Below are positions 2,428 through 9,898 of a stretch of 16,423 nucleotides of DNA, piece by piece (position 1 is the stretch's first letter; each line of letters begins with the position of its first letter). The stretch comes from Bdellovibrionota bacterium (lineage in GTDB: Bacteria > Bdellovibrionota > UBA1018 > UBA923): assembly GCA_040754655.1 (NCBI GenBank), contig JBFMCE010000087.1, positions 1 to 16,423 of the forward strand. The letters run 5' to 3'. The notes under the pieces were generated by a model. It saw only the letters and a program-made list of their open reading frames with translations. It was not told the origin of the DNA and searched no databases. The position numbers and the translations under genes were made by a program.

Positions 2428-3234
2428 ATGAGCACACTACAACCTACTTCCTCAAAACGCATGCCAGTGGTTTTTGTGGGGCACGGAAGCCCCATGAACG
2501 CGATTGAGCAAAATTCGTTTACAGAGACGTTATCGCGGCTTGGAAAGGAAATCCCGAGACCAAAGGCTATTTTGTGCGTGTCGGCGCACTGGATGAGCGA
2601 GGGCAGTTGGGTCACGGAGATGGCACGACCCAAGACGATCCACGATTTTTATGGGTTTCCAAAAGAACTGTTTGACGTTCAATATCCGGCTCAAGGCAGC
2701 CCTGAGCTAGCCAAGCTGATCCAAGACGCTATCAAAGATCCAAAGATTAACCTCGATCACAAGATGTGGGGACTAGATCACGGTACTTGGTCGGTACTCA
2801 AACACATGTATCCCAATGCTGATGTACCTGTGCTGCAACTGAGTTTGTATATGGAGCAGCCTGCGGAATACCATTACAAGTTAGGACAAGAGCTGAAGCA
2901 TTTAAGGGATCAGGGTGTCCTCATTATCGGCAGCGGCAATATCGTGCACAACTTAAGGCGCATCCGTTGGGAAGAAGGCGCGGAACCCTTTGAATGGGCC
3001 TCCGAATTTGACGAGTGGGTCAAAGGTCGTATTGCCATGCGCGACTACCGGTCGTTGATTTATGAAGCCACAGAGTCTGTCGCAGGAAAACTGAGCATTC
3101 CCACGGCTGAGCACTGGTACCCTTTGTTTTATGTTTTGGGTGCCTCAGACAGCCAAGACGTGTTGAGGTTTGAATACGAAGGTATTGAGATGGGGTCGAT
3201 CTCGATGCGGTCTCTGAGTTTGGGTTTGACCTGA
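2428..3234 (+). CDS. ygiD: 4,5-DOPA extradiol dioxygenase-like (LigB family) ring-cleavage dioxygenase
   Basis: Motifs MPVVFVGHGSPMNA, ILCVSAHW, TIHDFYGFP, WGLDHGTWSVL, IIGSGNIVHNL and PTAEHWYPL. Starts 6 nt after the yceI stop. Confidence 0.93.
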   Translation: MSTLQPTSSKRMPVVFVGHGSPMNAIEQNSFTETLSRLGKEIPRPKAILCVSAHWMSEGSWVTEMARPKTIHDFYGFPKELFDVQYPAQGSPELAKLIQDAIKDPKINLDHKMWGLDHGTWSVLKHMYPNADVPVLQLSLYMEQPAEYHYKLGQELKHLRDQGVLIIGSGNIVHNLRRIRWEEGAEPFEWASEFDEWVKGRIAMRDYRSLIYEATESVAGKLSIPTAEHWYPLFYVLGASDSQDVLRFEYEGIEMGSISMRSLSLGLT

Positions 3235-3456
3235 TTGAGCAGGAATGTGAATTTGGAACAAGGAGTCGCTGGAAGTCAGCAAATTGATTTCTCAAGACCT
3301 CACAGCCGTTCTTACCCGGAGAAATTTCGCAAGAAAGTGGCCAAAACAAGTCAACAATGGGTCGATTGGTCTAGATCTAAACCGAGAACTTTTGCAATCG
3401 ACGCGTCTTCGCGCCAGCCTTCGCTACTTCAGCGCTCGCTAAACAAAGCATGTCTG

Positions 3457-3465
3457 TGGTAGCGT
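3457..3465 (+). promoter_or_regulatory. Putative extended -10 promoter (TGnTAnnnT) for a leaderless uORF-secDF transcript
   Basis: TG-G-TAGCGT at 3457-3465, followed by exactly 6 nt and then GTG 3472. No SD precedes this GTG. Confidence 0.5.
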
Positions 3466-3471
3466 ATCGCT

Positions 3472-3837
3472 GTGCTGAAAACGAGAACCATTCAGAGTAA
3501 AGGCTCGGTGAAGCTTTGGCTCTGGCAGATCTTGATCGCTTTTTTTCTCTATCCTATATGGGCCCCTCCCCAAAGTATTCAGGGAGCGGAGCCAACGGAT
3601 TCTTCTTCGGATGCGCATTACAATCGGGGGGCCGACGGTTATTCTGCCGATGCTCCGAGGCCAGCCGCTCAGATCAAGAAGTATCCGCGCGCTTTTTTCG
3701 TGCTTACGAGCCTCGCATTGATTCCGTTGGCAAGCGGCGTCCAATGGGGTTCGGACGGTTTTGAAGGCATTGTTGGCGGAGACCAATATTTTCAACCCTC
3801 GTTTGCTCGAGGCCCGCCCCGAAGTATTTTCGTCTGA
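3472..3837 (+). CDS. Putative translation-arrest leader peptide (RGPP-type monitoring substrate) upstream of secDF
   Basis: 121 aa. Basic N-terminus, hydrophobic segment at aa 15-31 (LWLWQILIAFFLYPIWA), polar linker, second hydrophobic patch at aa 74-90, and R113-G-P-P116 five residues before the stop. It ends 83 nt upstream of the secD ATG. GTG 3508 is an alternative start. Confidence 0.75.
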   Translation: MLKTRTIQSKGSVKLWLWQILIAFFLYPIWAPPQSIQGAEPTDSSSDAHYNRGADGYSADAPRPAAQIKKYPRAFFVLTSLALIPLASGVQWGSDGFEGIVGGDQYFQPSFARGPPRSIFV

Positions 3838-3870
3838 CGGTCTAAAATAAATCGAATTTTATGAACAACC

Positions 3871-3895
3871 CGCGGGCCTACACCTTCGGCCCGCG
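3871..3895 (+). promoter_or_regulatory. GC-rich RNA hairpin in the secD leader
   Basis: CGCGGGCC (3871-3878) pairs with GGCCCGCG (3888-3895): perfect 8-bp stem, 9-nt loop, no U-tract. Ends 13 nt before the secD SD GAGGA (3909-3913). Confidence 0.65.
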
Positions 3896-3920
3896 TCGAA
3901 TCGCTTATGAGGAATTGAAT

Positions 3921-5636
3921 ATGCCACGTAGCTGGTGGGCGAAGCTTGCGCTTCTGATCACGTTTTTAATTACTGCTGTCTTTTATGTAATACCGACTAT
4001 CGCCAATCTTGATCCGGAGAAGACGAATTTTCCGGTGAAAAAGAAGGTGAATCTCGGCCTTGATCTTCAAGGCGGCCTTTATATGGTGCTTGGGGTCGAT
4101 TTCAATAAGGTTTTCCACGAAGTCATTGACCGTCAAGTTTCAGGTTTAAGAGAAAACTTGAAGTCAAAGAACATCACGGTTCAAAAAGGTGTTGAGGTAT
4201 CTCAGAGCACTCCTGATGATCCAAAGCTTCCGATTTCATTTGATCCGGCGCAGAGGGATGAGATCCACAAGATCTTAAAACGGGATTATTGGACGTTGCG
4301 AATCACGAATGAAAGCGCTGGCAAAATGGAACTTGGCCTTTCTCGCGAGTATCGCACCGAGATCCGCCAAGGCACGTTAAGCCAGAGCATTGAAGTCATT
4401 CGCAATCGGGTTGACGAGTTTGGCGTCGCGGAACCCATCATTACGAGTCAAGGTGAAGATCGGATTGTCGTAGAGCTTCCCGGAATCCGTGAAGTCGAAC
4501 GCGCAAAAGAGCTGATCGGAAGAACCGCAAAGCTTGAATTCAAACTAGTTGCCGATAAGCAGCTGGATCAAAATCAGCTTTTTGCGATGGTCGCCGAGCT
4601 TGAGAAAAGCAACAATGTGGCTTACCGCGAGGGTCAGAAGTTTTCGGAGTATGTTCAGAAAATAAATGAGCTCGCCAAAGGAAAGATCCCGCCAGGCACG
4701 ATTATCGCTTTTGAACGATCGAAGGCAGCTGAACAAACAGTTTCCGGGGGCATTCCCTACCTGCTGAATGCTTCGGCGGATATCACGGGTCATGATCTGC
4801 AAGACGCGACGGTGCAAATCGATCCAGAGAGCCAAAGGCCGGCGGTTGGGTTTGAGTTGACGCCGCAGGCGGCTGAAACATTCGCAAAACTCACGGGCGA
4901 GCATATCGGTGAGCGCCTCGCGATCGTGCTCGACAATATCGTTCATTCCGCTCCTGTGATTCAGGGGCAGATTCCCGGCGGAAGGGGCCAGATTTCCTTG
5001 GGTTCAGGAGGGAGGGAAGGCTTGCTTGAAGAAGCGAAAGACCTTGCGATCGTTCTCAGGGCCGGTGCGTTGCCCGCTCAACTAGAATTCCAACAAGAGC
5101 GCGAAATCGGACCTTCCTTGGGGGAAGACTCCATCCAGAAAGGAGCGAAAGCCGGCATTATCGGGTGTCTGTTGGTCTTTGCATTCATCGTTTTTTATTA
5201 TCGCGTGAGCGGTGCCGTGGCGGTATTTTCCCTTACCCTCAATGCGCTTTTCATCTTGGCGATCCTTATCGGCATCGATGCGACGTTGACGCTTCCGGGT
5301 ATCGCGGGCATCGCGCTTACGATCGGAATGGCGGTAGACAGCAACGTCATCATCTTTGAGCGCATCCGGGATGAGTTGATGGAAGGAAAACCCACTCCGA
5401 TAGCGGTGGAGTCGGGGTTCGCAAAGGCGTTTAGTTGTATTTTCGATGCGAATATCACCCACGGGATAGTCGCCGTGATCCTTTTGATGTACGGAACCGG
5501 TCCGATCAAAGGTTTCGCGATCACTCTTCTTATCGGGATAGCAACCACACTTTTCTGTGCTGTAACGGTCTGCAAGCTGATCTTTGATGGTTATCTGGGA
5601 CTCAGCAAACAACCTGTTAAAAGCCTCAGCATATAA
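3921..5636 (+). CDS. secD: Protein translocase subunit SecD
   Basis: Motifs NLGLDLQGG, IRNRVDEFGVAEPII, RIVVELPG, LRAGALPA, IGPSLG, TLTLPGIAGIALTIGMAVDSNVIIFERIRDE and IFDANIT. ATG 3921 with SD GAGGA 7 nt upstream is preferred over the track's 3861. Confidence 0.97.
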   Translation: MPRSWWAKLALLITFLITAVFYVIPTIANLDPEKTNFPVKKKVNLGLDLQGGLYMVLGVDFNKVFHEVIDRQVSGLRENLKSKNITVQKGVEVSQSTPDDPKLPISFDPAQRDEIHKILKRDYWTLRITNESAGKMELGLSREYRTEIRQGTLSQSIEVIRNRVDEFGVAEPIITSQGEDRIVVELPGIREVERAKELIGRTAKLEFKLVADKQLDQNQLFAMVAELEKSNNVAYREGQKFSEYVQKINELAKGKIPPGTIIAFERSKAAEQTVSGGIPYLLNASADITGHDLQDATVQIDPESQRPAVGFELTPQAAETFAKLTGEHIGERLAIVLDNIVHSAPVIQGQIPGGRGQISLGSGGREGLLEEAKDLAIVLRAGALPAQLEFQQEREIGPSLGEDSIQKGAKAGIIGCLLVFAFIVFYYRVSGAVAVFSLTLNALFILAILIGIDATLTLPGIAGIALTIGMAVDSNVIIFERIRDELMEGKPTPIAVESGFAKAFSCIFDANITHGIVAVILLMYGTGPIKGFAITLLIGIATTLFCAVTVCKLIFDGYLGLSKQPVKSLSI

Positions 5637-5647
5637 GGATTCTATTT

Positions 5648-6580
5648 ATGATTCAGCTTATTCGTCCGAATGGTAATTTTGATTTCTTGGGAAAAAGCAA
5701 ACCGTTTATCGTTGCATCGACTCTGGCGGCGATTTTGAGCACGATCGGCCTTTTTACGAAGGGCCTGAATTTCGGCATCGACTTCACCGGAGGCGCGGAA
5801 GTTCAACTCAAGGCGCCTCAGGGATGGAATATCGGCAAGGTACGTTCTGAACTCGAGTCGGGAGGATTGAAAGATCCCGTGGTCGTGCAGATCGGGGCCA
5901 CGACCGATCGTGAGTTTTTAATCAAGGTTCAATCGTCTCCTGAGAAGCTGGCTGCGGTAGGCAGCGATGTGAAAAGGATCATCGGCGAGAAAAGCGGGTC
6001 GAAAGACTTCGAAGTGGTCAGGGTTGACGTCGTAGGGCCTCAGGCGGGCGCGAATCTAAGATCAGCCGCGATTCTCTCGATTTTCTACGCGGCTCTGGCG
6101 ATTCTCATCTACATCACCTTTCGATTCGACGTGAGGTACGCTCCCGGGGTCGTTCGCGCCCTTGGAGTTGACGTTATCATTACGCTGGGAATCTGGGTTC
6201 TGCTTCAAAAAGAATTCAACCTTACCGTATTAGCGTCGCTGCTCACGATCGCGGGTTATTCGTGTAATGACACGATCGTCATTTATGACAGGATCCGCGA
6301 CTATACGAAGACGTATCCGTCATGGGGAATTGAGCAGGCGGTGAATCGTTCGATCAATCAGAACTTGGGTCGAACTCTGTTGACCACCATCTGTACATTA
6401 TTCGTGGTCGTGACTTTGTGGATCATGGGTGGACCGGTGCTGCAGGATTTTGCTTTGCCATTGCTGATCGGAATGGTCATCAGCGTTTTTTCAACCATCT
6501 TCGTGGCGAACCCGATGGTGGTTTACATGGAAAAACGGCGCTTGGCCCGGGCCAAGGCAACGCCTGCGCATGCTAAGTAG
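5648..6580 (+). CDS. secF: Protein translocase subunit SecF
   Basis: Motifs GLNFGIDFTGG, VVGPQAG, YITFRF, LLTIAGYSCNDTIVIYDRIR and SINQNLGRTLLT. Starts 11 nt after secD, with SD AAGGA. Confidence 0.96.
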   Translation: MIQLIRPNGNFDFLGKSKPFIVASTLAAILSTIGLFTKGLNFGIDFTGGAEVQLKAPQGWNIGKVRSELESGGLKDPVVVQIGATTDREFLIKVQSSPEKLAAVGSDVKRIIGEKSGSKDFEVVRVDVVGPQAGANLRSAAILSIFYAALAILIYITFRFDVRYAPGVVRALGVDVIITLGIWVLLQKEFNLTVLASLLTIAGYSCNDTIVIYDRIRDYTKTYPSWGIEQAVNRSINQNLGRTLLTTICTLFVVVTLWIMGGPVLQDFALPLLIGMVISVFSTIFVANPMVVYMEKRRLARAKATPAHAK

Positions 6581-6600: not shown

Positions 6601-8973
6601 ATGCTCTCAAAGCTGAAAAAGCTGCACTTCCAATATTGGTGGGTTGGCCTTTTCGTGGCCCTGGCGATTTCGATCCTGGGGGCGAACTACGGGCGAAAAG
6701 TGCCAATCCGCCTCTCATTAGCCGATCTGCTGCCTGAGAATCGGCAGAGCGTGCTTGATCTGAAGGAAGTCACTAAAGACGTGGGTGGAGTGGGATACTT
6801 CATTGTGCTCATAGGCCCAGTCAACGAGAAGCCTGAGCAGTATTTGACTTCGGTGAATGATGCGGTGAAAAAACTTCCTGACATCCGATACAGCTTTTAC
6901 GAGAAAGAATCTTACCTTCTTCGAAATGCAGCCCTCTTTCTCTTGCCGCCACAGAAGTTTGACGAGCTTTTGAAGAATGCCAAAGTCATTTTTACCGAGG
7001 GAAAAAAAGACGCTTTTGACCTTGGTTTAGACGACGAAGAAGAATCTGCTCAAAACAAGCTTGAGAATGCCAAGGCTTTCTTCAAAGATTTGGCGTCGAG
7101 CCCCGCGGCTAAAGAAACTGAGAGATATTTCCTCTCGCAAGATGGCAAATACGCCATGCTTCTCGCCAAACCTTCGTTTGATTCAGAAGACCTTGAGAAA
7201 TCAAAGGAGTTGGTCGCGAACGCTACGCTCGCCATAGGAAAAGCTCTTCCTGGTGGAGTGCCTTTCAAACTGGTCGGTCGCTATGTCGACAAGGTAAATG
7301 ACGTCGCTCAAATCGAAAGAGACATCACGAAAACAAGCGTATTCAGCCTTGTCGCGATATTTAGCGTTCTCATCGTCGGTTTAGGCACCGTGCGTGGCTC
7401 GCTGGCTACGGTTGCGGCGGTTACTCTTGCTTTGGGTTGGACCACGGGTTTCTCGTATTTTGCCGTGGGCCAGATCAATATCCTGACCGGGTTCTTGCTC
7501 GCTATCTTAGGAGGCCTAGGCGTCGAGTACGGAATTCATTTCATTCGCCGCTATTACCAAGAGAGAGATTCTGGCCTTGATCATGAACCGGCCCTTCATG
7601 CGACGTTTCACCATATGAGCCGTGCGTTGTTATCAGCCGCACTCACCTCGGCGGGCGCTTTTTTCATCCTCGTGTTCAGCGATTTTCGCGGGTTCTCTGA
7701 GCTTGGAAAGATCGCCGGTTTCGGGGTGCTCGCGATTTATTTGGTTTATGTTCTGTGCTTTCCGGCGATGGGGAAGGTTCTTCGAAGAAAACGGAGGGCT
7801 AAAAACCTTGCGCGCCTATTCGGGTATTTTCCTTTTGACTCGAAATGGAAAGTAGCGCTCGTGCCATTAGCGGTGGTTGTCGGCTTGGGTTTGATGAACG
7901 CGCGCTTTGAATACGATTTTGAACGCATGCATGATCTGTCGAAAGAAACCATGCGGCTCAACCACCTGGTGAACGAGCTTTTTGGCAGGTCCCTCACTCC
8001 GGCAGCCCTCCTTACTCAGAACAAAGTGCAAACCTCTGAGGTGACACGTTGGCTGAAAGACCCGAAACACTCTTCGATGGTGCAGGAGGTGATCTCGCTG
8101 CATTCTCTGATATCAGATGACATGCAATCAAGGTACGAAAGGCTTGAAAGATTTCGTGCTTCGATACGAAAAGCTTCTGATTCAGAATTGTCGTCTAAAG
8201 TGGGTCTTGACCCGAAGCTTGTGCGAGGCTGGGTTGAATCGAAACCCCAGGCTAAAGAAGACTTGCCTCCTCAATTGCGCGAAGCCTTTGGGGCGTCAGG
8301 GAATATCGTGTTGGTCTATCCGAAGGAAAATCTCGATCAAGCAGACGCCTTGCGTCGTTTCTCGAACCTTCTTGAAGAATCGAAACGCTCTTTCTCGGGC
8401 ACGCGAATCGGCAGTGATGCCAAGCTTTTCATAGAAATTTTTGACCATATCGTCGACGATGGCCGAATAGTGCTCGTGTTGTTCTTGATCGGAGCAATGG
8501 GGGTGCTTTGGTTGGATTTTCGGAATATCCGGGATGCGGTTTCATTGGTTGTCCAGTTGGTCTTGGGCATCGTCATGCTCGTCGCTTTGATGGGTGCCGT
8601 GGGGGTATCATTTTCAATCCTGAACGTGGCGATGATCCCCGCCGTATTGGCTGCGGGAATTGACATGGGCGTGCACGTGAGGCATCGAGAAAAGGAAGGA
8701 TTCTCCATCTTGAGCAGCGCAAGATTCGTCTCGCAGGCCGTGCATCTTTCGGTGCTCACGACCATTCTTGGTTTTGGATCCCTCTTTATCGCGCAAGCGG
8801 GCATCTTAAAAGGCATCGCTTGGGTTTCGGTGCTTGGCCAGCTCTCGATGTATATTGTTTGTATGTTCGCATGGCCAGTGCTCAAGCAGGAGTTCGCGCG
8901 ATTTGCGGAAGAAAAAGATTCTAGCTTCAAGGAATCGCATCCTTCCAGAGAAGCTACATTGGGGAGCGGATAA
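6601..8973 (+). CDS. MMPL-family (RND superfamily) multi-pass transporter
   Basis: 790 aa. Two repeats of one TM, a large extracytoplasmic loop and about five TMs. DLLP motif after TM1, GLGVEYGIHFIRRY, SAALTSAGAFFIL, FSDFRGFSELGKIAGFG, AGIDMGVH and LTTILGFGSL. Confidence 0.85.
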   Translation: MLSKLKKLHFQYWWVGLFVALAISILGANYGRKVPIRLSLADLLPENRQSVLDLKEVTKDVGGVGYFIVLIGPVNEKPEQYLTSVNDAVKKLPDIRYSFYEKESYLLRNAALFLLPPQKFDELLKNAKVIFTEGKKDAFDLGLDDEEESAQNKLENAKAFFKDLASSPAAKETERYFLSQDGKYAMLLAKPSFDSEDLEKSKELVANATLAIGKALPGGVPFKLVGRYVDKVNDVAQIERDITKTSVFSLVAIFSVLIVGLGTVRGSLATVAAVTLALGWTTGFSYFAVGQINILTGFLLAILGGLGVEYGIHFIRRYYQERDSGLDHEPALHATFHHMSRALLSAALTSAGAFFILVFSDFRGFSELGKIAGFGVLAIYLVYVLCFPAMGKVLRRKRRAKNLARLFGYFPFDSKWKVALVPLAVVVGLGLMNARFEYDFERMHDLSKETMRLNHLVNELFGRSLTPAALLTQNKVQTSEVTRWLKDPKHSSMVQEVISLHSLISDDMQSRYERLERFRASIRKASDSELSSKVGLDPKLVRGWVESKPQAKEDLPPQLREAFGASGNIVLVYPKENLDQADALRRFSNLLEESKRSFSGTRIGSDAKLFIEIFDHIVDDGRIVLVLFLIGAMGVLWLDFRNIRDAVSLVVQLVLGIVMLVALMGAVGVSFSILNVAMIPAVLAAGIDMGVHVRHREKEGFSILSSARFVSQAVHLSVLTTILGFGSLFIAQAGILKGIAWVSVLGQLSMYIVCMFAWPVLKQEFARFAEEKDSSFKESHPSREATLGSG

Positions 8974-8977
8974 AAAC

Positions 8978-9898
8978 ATGGGTCATTCTCATTCGCATTC
9001 TCATTCGCATGGCCACCACCATACCCATACCCATGCGCATGAAAACAAGAGCAAGCTTTTGTGGGTGCTCGTTTTGACCGGAGTTTTTCTCATCGTCGAA
9101 ATCATCGCGGGACTCAGCTCAAAAAGCTTAGCCTTGCTAGCTGATGCCGGCCATATGGTCACTGACTTCGGCGCCCTTGGGCTTGCATTGTTTGGCATCA
9201 AGATCGCCGAAAGACCGGCGAATCCGCAGCGCACCTACGGATATTATCGAGCTGAGATCTTAGCTGCGCTTGCCAACGCGATTCTACTAGTGGGAATCGG
9301 CGGTTATATTTTTTATGAGGCGTTCCAGCGTTTTAGGAATCCCATAGCTGTAGACAGTCATACCGTGCTTTGGGTGTCAGTCTTGGGGCTCGGCGTGAAT
9401 ATGGCTGGGATTTTTCTCTTGCGTCGCGGCGCGGAGCATAGTTTGAACTTGCGCGCCGCTTATCTTGAGGTTTTCTCGGACGCGATCGCGTCGTTAGGCG
9501 TCATTGTATCGGCGGCGATCGTGTATTTTACGGGATGGAGTTATGCGGATTCGATCGTCTCGTTGGGCATAGCTGTCTTTATTCTGCCTCGAACTTGGCG
9601 GCTGTTGTCAGAGACGGTTGGAGTTTTGCTTGAAGGCACCCCATCAGACGTCGATATCGGCGCTTTGAGGAGTTCGATCGCGACGCTTCCCGGAGTGGCT
9701 GGCGTCCATGACTTGCACGTTTGGGCGCTCTCATCAGGCATAAACGCAATGAGCGTTCACGTGGTTTTAAATCCTGGTGAAAATCATGATGAAATCCTCA
9801 AGAGGGTTCAAAAACACGTGGTGAGTTCGCATAAAATCAAGCATGCGACCGTTCAAGTAGAGTCGCTTGGTTGCGCGGAAGATGAAACCCATCTTTAG
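8978..9898 (+). CDS. czcD: Cation diffusion facilitator, CzcD/ZitB-like Zn/Co/Cd efflux transporter
   Basis: Motifs SLALLADAGHMVTD, RTYGYYRAEILAALAN, NLRAAYLEVFSD, LLEGTP, VHDLHVW and HATVQVE. The likely start is ATG 8978, 4 nt after the MMPL stop. The N-terminus has 11 His in the first 21 residues. Confidence 0.92.
   Translation: MGHSHSHSHSHGHHHTHTHAHENKSKLLWVLVLTGVFLIVEIIAGLSSKSLALLADAGHMVTDFGALGLALFGIKIAERPANPQRTYGYYRAEILAALANAILLVGIGGYIFYEAFQRFRNPIAVDSHTVLWVSVLGLGVNMAGIFLLRRGAEHSLNLRAAYLEVFSDAIASLGVIVSAAIVYFTGWSYADSIVSLGIAVFILPRTWRLLSETVGVLLEGTPSDVDIGALRSSIATLPGVAGVHDLHVWALSSGINAMSVHVVLNPGENHDEILKRVQKHVVSSHKIKHATVQVESLGCAEDETHL

Follow-up and report, generated by a model that had tools for sequence, protein, structure and literature searches.

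A putative RGPP-type, Sec-monitoring arrest peptide encoded ahead of an accessory secDF operon in a member of the Bdellovibrionota

The window considered here, the whole analysed stretch of 16,423 nucleotides from a Bdellovibrionota genome, carries a small upstream open reading frame (uORF; 3472-3837, + strand, GTG start, TGA stop) whose 121-aa product is probably a Sec-monitoring arrest peptide controlling an accessory secDF operon (secDF2), a reading that draws on analogy with characterised peptides of this kind. The original prediction of a 121-aa uORF before secD is confirmed, and the two genes that follow are identified by Pfam as SecD and SecF. The former (secD2; 3921-5636, +) matches SecDF_P1_head, SecD_1st and SecD_SecF_C, and the latter (secF2; 5648-6580, +) matches SecD_SecF_C at 3e-57 together with Sec_GG. 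That the uORF lies directly upstream of secD is borne out as far as strand and adjacency are concerned, but the distance between the two is probably 83 nt and not the 23 nt given by the longest secD ORF. This longest ORF opens in frame at ATG 3861, 23 nt past the uORF stop. As the SecD proteins of relatives, and the other SecD of the same genome (on contig C64, beginning MSRSWWAK), align only from residue 21 of this ORF, and as a Shine-Dalgarno sequence (SD), GAGGA (3909-3913), stands before ATG 3921, the latter is the likely start (SD and start, 3909-3923, +) and the larger gap is the more probable one.

The uORF product begins with a basic region (K3, R5, K10 and K14; net +4 over the first 14 aa), which is followed by the hydrophobic segment LWLWQILIAFFLYPIWA (aa 15-31; 3514-3564, +). 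On hydropathy this is a putative signal peptide or signal anchor, with a Kyte-Doolittle (KD) mean of 2.0 over aa 16-31 (11-aa window), and it corresponds to the signal- or TM-like segment first proposed for these residues. A second, moderately hydrophobic stretch spans aa 74-92 (KD 1.60 over 19 aa; 1.23 in the weaker counterpart of the homolog described below). At the other end of the protein, the codons CGA GGC CCG CCC (3808-3819) read as R113, G114, P115 and P116 and are followed by the five residues RSIFV and by TGA at 3835-3837, so that both the position of RGPP and its distance of five codons from the stop are as had been stated. The spacer, predicted at about 80 residues, measures 84 aa, counted from aa 31 up to P115, the residue predicted to occupy the P site. 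Within it lies a conserved central block, ADAPRPAAQIKKYPRAF (aa 59-75; 3646-3696, +), and RGPP itself closes a candidate arrest module, [DE]QYFQxxxARxPP, delineated from a two-sequence alignment (aa 105-116, here QYFQPSFARGPP; 3784-3819, +). In the stalled ribosomes of ApdA and ApdP, peptidyl-RAP-tRNA occupies the P site and an accommodated Pro-tRNA at the A site is unable to attack (PMC10951233). By this geometry the uORF stall is predicted with the P site holding the P115 codon CCG, and the A site the P116 codon CCC (3814-3819, +).

The features by which uORFs of this type are recognised in PMC10987492 are found at the locus: a small, unannotated uORF on the same strand as a sec gene, a conserved C-terminus, a spacer of >30 aa and, on hydropathy, an N-terminal localisation signal. 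RGPP is in addition a core of the R/Q/H-[AG]-P-P type that defines the RAPP-like (RQH) group. No convincing SD was found ahead of the uORF GTG, and searches with the protein returned no family from either Pfam (E<=0.01) or NCBIfam (E<=1). As the uORF starts with GTG and has neither an SD nor a known family, automated annotation would miss it or label its product hypothetical. The ESM Atlas model of the protein has a pLDDT of 0.51 and a pTM of 0.21, and given this low confidence no folded domain is evident; the nearest clusters in the same resource, which serve as a lead only, are unnamed hypothetical proteins of 108-133 aa (score 0.95).

One true homolog, P0002 (117 aa), was recovered at E 4.2e-12 by a HMMER search of 1,835,955,588 representative proteins. 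In a BLASTP comparison 43 of 103 residues are identical (42%; pairwise E 4e-21), with only 6 gap positions, and the two proteins share three parts, namely the hydrophobic N-terminus (aa 10-28 in P0002; KD 2.29 over 19 aa), the central block and the C-terminal module. Conservation is highest in the central block, AD.PRP.AQIKKYPRAF, with 15 of 17 residues identical. Towards the C-terminus Q105, Y106, F107, Q108, A112, R113, P115 and P116 are invariant in this alignment of two sequences, and exactly five residues separate R-x-P-P from the stop in both. The core is RGPP in the uORF and RPPP in P0002; an arrest at the latter was not met in the passages of the literature covered here. We regard the uORF as a genuine gene for a protein in which the position of R-x-P-P is under purifying selection. 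As P0002 is encoded on a single 576-bp contig, its gene neighbourhood is not visible.

The family comprises only these two members. A word-indexed protein search with the uORF returned the query itself and nothing else, and a two-sequence profile run against 5.77 billion clusters gave two hits and no third member. No homolog was found in a six-frame search of the order's 115 other genomes, where the best E was 0.019, or with the two-sequence profile in the phylum's 400 other genomes, where it was 0.0012. The phylum match at E 0.0012 was rejected, as it covers the hydrophobic segment only and lies inside a 539-aa frame, and P0003, a highly repetitive metagenomic protein of 1512 aa (E 1.2e-5), was set aside as a compositional match, since it aligns with aa 5-32 alone through 12 repeats. 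The absence of similarity to named arrest peptides (SecM, VemP, ApdA, ApdP and MifM), noted at the outset, thus holds: there is no Pfam or NCBIfam family and P0002 is the sole true match, the named peptides being assumed to be present in the libraries. The accompanying idea of an undescribed family survives in part. The sequence family is new and without a named relative, but its kind has already been described, RGPP and RAPP uORFs before secDF, orphans included, being reported in PMC10987492.

A C-terminal RGPP is a rare feature in this genome. Six-frame translation gives 26,338 ORFs with a length of 40-300 aa. R[AG]PP occurs within the last 15 residues of 10 of them, and the uORF is the only one of the ten to exceed 100 aa; the nine others are short (40-89 aa), and one example, C3:12819-12941(-), has a hydrophobic stretch. 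Motifs were also counted in a proxy proteome made up of 2,899 stop-to-stop ORFs, each with 200 codons or more. The counts gave no RGPP against 10.8 expected, two RAPP against 13.3, two RPPP against 6.9 and 19 AAPP against 17.9, and RAPP, RPPP and RAGP are 3- to 7-fold depleted in these long ORFs. The scarcity of RGPP fits a motif that is deleterious to the host ribosome. The depletion pattern also matches what PMC12992588 reports, in the parts covered, on under-representation and stalling strength: in many phyla no tetrapeptide is more under-represented than RGPP, and among RAPP-like cores it stalls most robustly, causing a context-tolerant arrest refractory to EF-P. A chance origin of the C-terminal RGPP in the uORF is unlikely, because ORFs ending with R[AG]PP are rare, because RGPP is depleted and because R-x-P-P is found in the same place in the homolog. 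The absence of the motif from long ORFs may offer a simple, genome-internal indicator of its activity on the host ribosome.

Judged from gene content and phylogeny, the secDF pair of the window is an accessory paralog, since the canonical tgt-yajC-secD-secF operon is located on contig C64 (secDF at G000:C64:16136-18730), since the window pair lacks yajC and since its SecD falls into a separate clade. In a maximum likelihood tree of SecD (32 rows) the C64 copy groups with the canonical copies of its family in a 100/100 clade. The window SecD is placed in the other 100/100 clade, inside a 100/100 subclade together with the canonical copies of families f3, f5 and f9, and pairs with a yajC-less copy from genome G005 at 91/90, which is under the star threshold of the tool. 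This suggests that secDF2 stems from an old duplication or from horizontal acquisition, possibly from another family of the same order.

Upstream of secD in 29 related loci, a YajC ORF with the motif RPQ[QN]K is found in 25, and two more (L003 and L022) have a YajC with a variant motif, bringing the yajC-secD loci to 27 of 29; among these related loci L009 has no yajC upstream of secD, and the assignment of L025 is uncertain. The original prediction had looked to a conserved uORF in those relatives that keep secDF. With yajC occupying this position in nearly all of the loci the expectation does not apply, and the search turned up no accessory locus that is orthologous and carries a uORF. Two SecD matches at E<=1e-60 occur in 11 of the 401 genomes of the phylum. 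These are the genome of the window (G000), six that were looked at (G005, G006, G063, G045, G259 and G283) and four that were left out (G061, G065, G075 and G083). The apparent second copies in G006, G063, G045 and G259 were rejected as single genes that are split or frameshifted. At the two other full-length, yajC-less second secD copies, G005:C1 (L009) and G283:C4 (L068), an RxPP uORF is absent; the G283 copy is preceded by an AT-rich spacer, and in G005 a 347-aa ORF ends 30 nt ahead of secD. A SecD search of genome contigs gave one locus, at a contig edge and devoid of upstream DNA, and metagenome contigs yielded no close relative of the SecD N-terminus, the 4 loci obtained there being 35-66% identical.

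The spacer RNA between the uORF and secD is predicted to fold into a perfect 8-bp G+C hairpin (CGCGGGCC, a 9-nt loop and GGCCCGCG; 3871-3895, +), which has pairing probabilities of 0.81-0.97 and is unique in the genome. It is not followed by a U-tract, was not called by the terminator scan and is too far downstream to be reached by a ribosome that has stalled at 3814-3819. A hypothetical long-range helix would pair GCCCGCC in the G-P-P codons (3812-3818) with GGUGGGC in secD codons 5-7 (3934-3940, +), thereby enclosing the SD and start of secD. Its probability varies from 0.05 to 0.92 across five folded segments, and it is present in the minimum-energy structures of two of three folded segments as well as in the first fold of 3780-3945. 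The fold of 3780-3945 is not better than those of shuffled sequences (z -1.17; 25 of 200 shuffles as stable), and when 3799-3831 is blocked in silico, the probability that the SD region is unpaired rises only from 0.28-0.40 to 0.43-0.46 (three folded segments). The RNA-folding model of a coupling between arrest and secD is thus a weak one, dependent on the segment chosen for folding.

Other features of the window were noted around the locus. Between the gene for a LigB-family dioxygenase and the uORF lies a 237-nt stretch (3235-3471) containing a weak terminator-like hairpin (3268-3280) with a minus-strand counterpart (3266-3282). The promoter scan found no sigma-70-like site in 3100-4000, and no Rfam family matches in 3000-4200. 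Downstream, a gene encoding an MMPL/RND transporter of 790 aa (6601-8973, +) begins 20 nt past secF and may belong to one operon with secDF2; its best NCBIfam matches, HpnN-like and HAE3, are all under the curated cut-offs. It is followed by a CDF-family cation efflux protein (8981-9898, +; TIGR01297 at 1.1e-86, with a ZitB-like match below cut-off) that has a His-rich N-terminus, HSHSHSHSHGHHHTHTH. The listed ORF for this protein starts further upstream, at TTG 8834, and its beginning overlaps the last part of the RND gene.

Every in silico check agrees with the arrest-peptide layout upstream of secDF that was originally put forward, R-x-P-P being kept in the only homolog and the secDF in question being an accessory paralog. 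From the analogy with SecM, VemP, ApdA/ApdP and uDF_RQH_Enterobacterales we infer that the ribosome stalls, that force releases the stall and that the arrest is coupled to secD. In such a scheme the nascent uORF chain, targeted to the Sec machinery, would stall its own ribosome at R113-G-P-P116. As long as export is efficient, the translocon would engage the N-terminal signal or anchor, which at 84 residues from the stall site would be well outside the exit tunnel, and the pull on the chain would quickly free the stall. When export is impaired the ribosome would stay on nt ~3800-3830, and its presence would remodel the uORF-secD mRNA so that the SD and start of secD (3909-3923) become more accessible, leading to induction of the accessory secDF2 operon. 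According to the folding model, the helix 3812-3818/3934-3940 would be opened by the stalled ribosome.

Three other explanations deserve consideration. In one of them the uORF is open by chance within a non-coding spacer of 625 nt, and its motif is a coincidence. Three overlapping frames are open at the locus (+ strand, 121 and 82 aa; - strand, 118 aa), the GTG start lacks an SD, no Pfam or NCBIfam family is recognised, and the codon-usage score of the uORF, 0.047, stands no higher than the 13th percentile of coding chunks, a level that 6.9% of shadow ORFs attain. The two overlapping ORFs score worse, however, at -0.126 and -0.093, and the density ratio of coding over shadow ORFs, 2.6, gives modest support to the uORF. 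Given P0002 in particular, a homolog of the same length at E 4.2e-12, consistent in frame over 103 residues and with the same C-terminal geometry, a chance ORF is extremely improbable and this explanation is largely refuted. A more serious alternative, though in our view unlikely, is that the uORF product is a small protein, exported or anchored in the membrane, that has its own function. It might for instance take the place of yajC as an accessory subunit of SecDF2, in which case R-x-P-P would have a structural or pausing role and secDF2 would merely be co-transcribed. The uORF does hold the position that yajC has in 27 of the 29 related loci, its product has a second, moderately hydrophobic stretch (aa 74-92), and its most conserved part is the central block. 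Such a block at aa 59-75 would not be expected in a peptide that does nothing but arrest, and it suggests some further function. It is the one feature that the known model leaves unexplained, and it speaks for a second regulatory module or for a role of the mature protein in its own right. Against this stand the lack of any similarity to YajC (no Pfam hit; hhalign probability 0.03%), the low confidence of the ESM Atlas model with no folded domain evident, and the hydrophobic stretch at aa 74-92 not being kept in P0002 (KD 1.23). Furthermore, RGPP is absent elsewhere in the long ORFs and is reported to stall in many contexts (PMC12992588), so that a 'silent' RGPP would be unusual.

It is also conceivable, if highly unlikely, that the uORF does arrest at RGPP while the output is something other than the unmasking of secD, that is, transcription (Rho or an attenuator involving the hairpin 3871-3895), mRNA stability, or termination-reinitiation at ATG 3861. 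The weakness of the SD-unmasking model would speak for this, as would the very stable and unique spacer hairpin, which is out of reach of the stalled ribosome, and the in-frame ATG 3861 located 23 nt downstream of the uORF stop. Yet the hairpin lacks a U-tract and was not called as a terminator, no SD precedes ATG 3861, none of the relatives has the 20 additional residues that this start would give SecD, and the characterised Sec/YidC monitoring substrates covered in PMC10987492 act by exposing an SD. We keep to the reading of the uORF product as a probable Sec-monitoring arrest peptide acting on secDF2. A more elaborate form of it, quite unlikely in all its parts together, holds that the uORF founds an undescribed family of the Oligoflexia composed of a signal or anchor, a mid-chain block and a [DE]QYFQxxxARxPP core, the mid-chain block acting as a second control point and the long-range helix as the readout. 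In the stalled complex 40-56 residues would then separate the block at aa 59-75 from the peptidyl-transferase centre, placing the block at the tunnel exit or immediately beyond it, where it might contact the ribosome surface, SecY or a chaperone and so gate the force-dependent release, and the stall would be read by the helix 3812-3818/3934-3940 instead of by a local SD-masking stem.

If confirmed, an arrest peptide at this locus would extend the RAPP-like Sec-monitoring arrest peptides to the Bdellovibrionota (class Oligoflexia), would represent another independent recruitment of an RGPP uORF to an accessory secDF paralog and would support the published idea of RxPP as a repeatedly arising evolutionary 'seed'. 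No arrest peptide from the Bdellovibrionota was found in the literature searched, including the accessible parts of PMC10987492 and PMC12992588. In the supplements of PMC10987492 that were searched, the phylum figures in the genome list only, the likely uDF table and the supplementary figures lying outside this search. The metagenome-assembled genome from which the window derives may be later than GTDB r202.

Among the systems with which the uORF can be compared, YajC has the same genomic position, a similar size and a hydrophobic N-terminal region, but its RPQQKK motif and its C-terminal domain are absent from the uORF protein. A diverged YajC was accordingly rejected, there being no Pfam hit and a single aligned column in the hhalign comparison (probability 0.03%) with the YajC proteins of 25 relatives. 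VemP of Vibrio has no sequence similarity to the uORF and is not known to have a RAPP-like core. What VemP shares with the candidate described here is its role as a Sec-monitoring substrate of an accessory secD2-secF2, the housekeeping secDF being located elsewhere, and a long spacer between signal and arrest site (PMC11470409, PMC10987492). ApdA and ApdP come nearer in their chemistry, with an R-x-P-P core, a stall between two prolines, an N-terminal signal and a location upstream of secDF, as well as a two-module logic in which an arrest core is combined with a 'regulator' segment in the tunnel (PMC10951233). Unlike the uORF, they carry RAPP and not RGPP as a core and precede the secDF of the organism and not a second paralog, and they are not homologous to it.

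The uORF also agrees with the definition of the 'orphan' RAPP/RGPP uORFs before secA or secDF, which carry a localisation signal, number <3 ORFs per bacterial order and are distributed over nine phyla (PMC10987492), as it is the only hit among 116 genomes of its order. The closest known case is uDF_RQH_Enterobacterales of Alteromonas naphthalenivorans, an arrest peptide of the RQH family encoded by a 131-aa uORF with R125GPP that precedes secDF2 and induces it by opening an SD-masking stem (PMC10987492). The two belong to different phyla, the present uORF being from the Bdellovibrionota, and have no detectable sequence similarity, and the masking of the SD by stem-loop 2 has been shown by mutation in Alteromonas, whereas a weak long-range helix and a spacer hairpin are predicted at the present locus. 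In their layout, on the other hand, both are small uORFs (131 and 121 aa), both have a localisation signal at the N-terminus, putative in the present uORF, and a spacer of considerable length after it, both carry RGPP close to the stop (R125GPP followed by three residues, R113GPP by five), and both stand directly upstream of an accessory secDF paralog.
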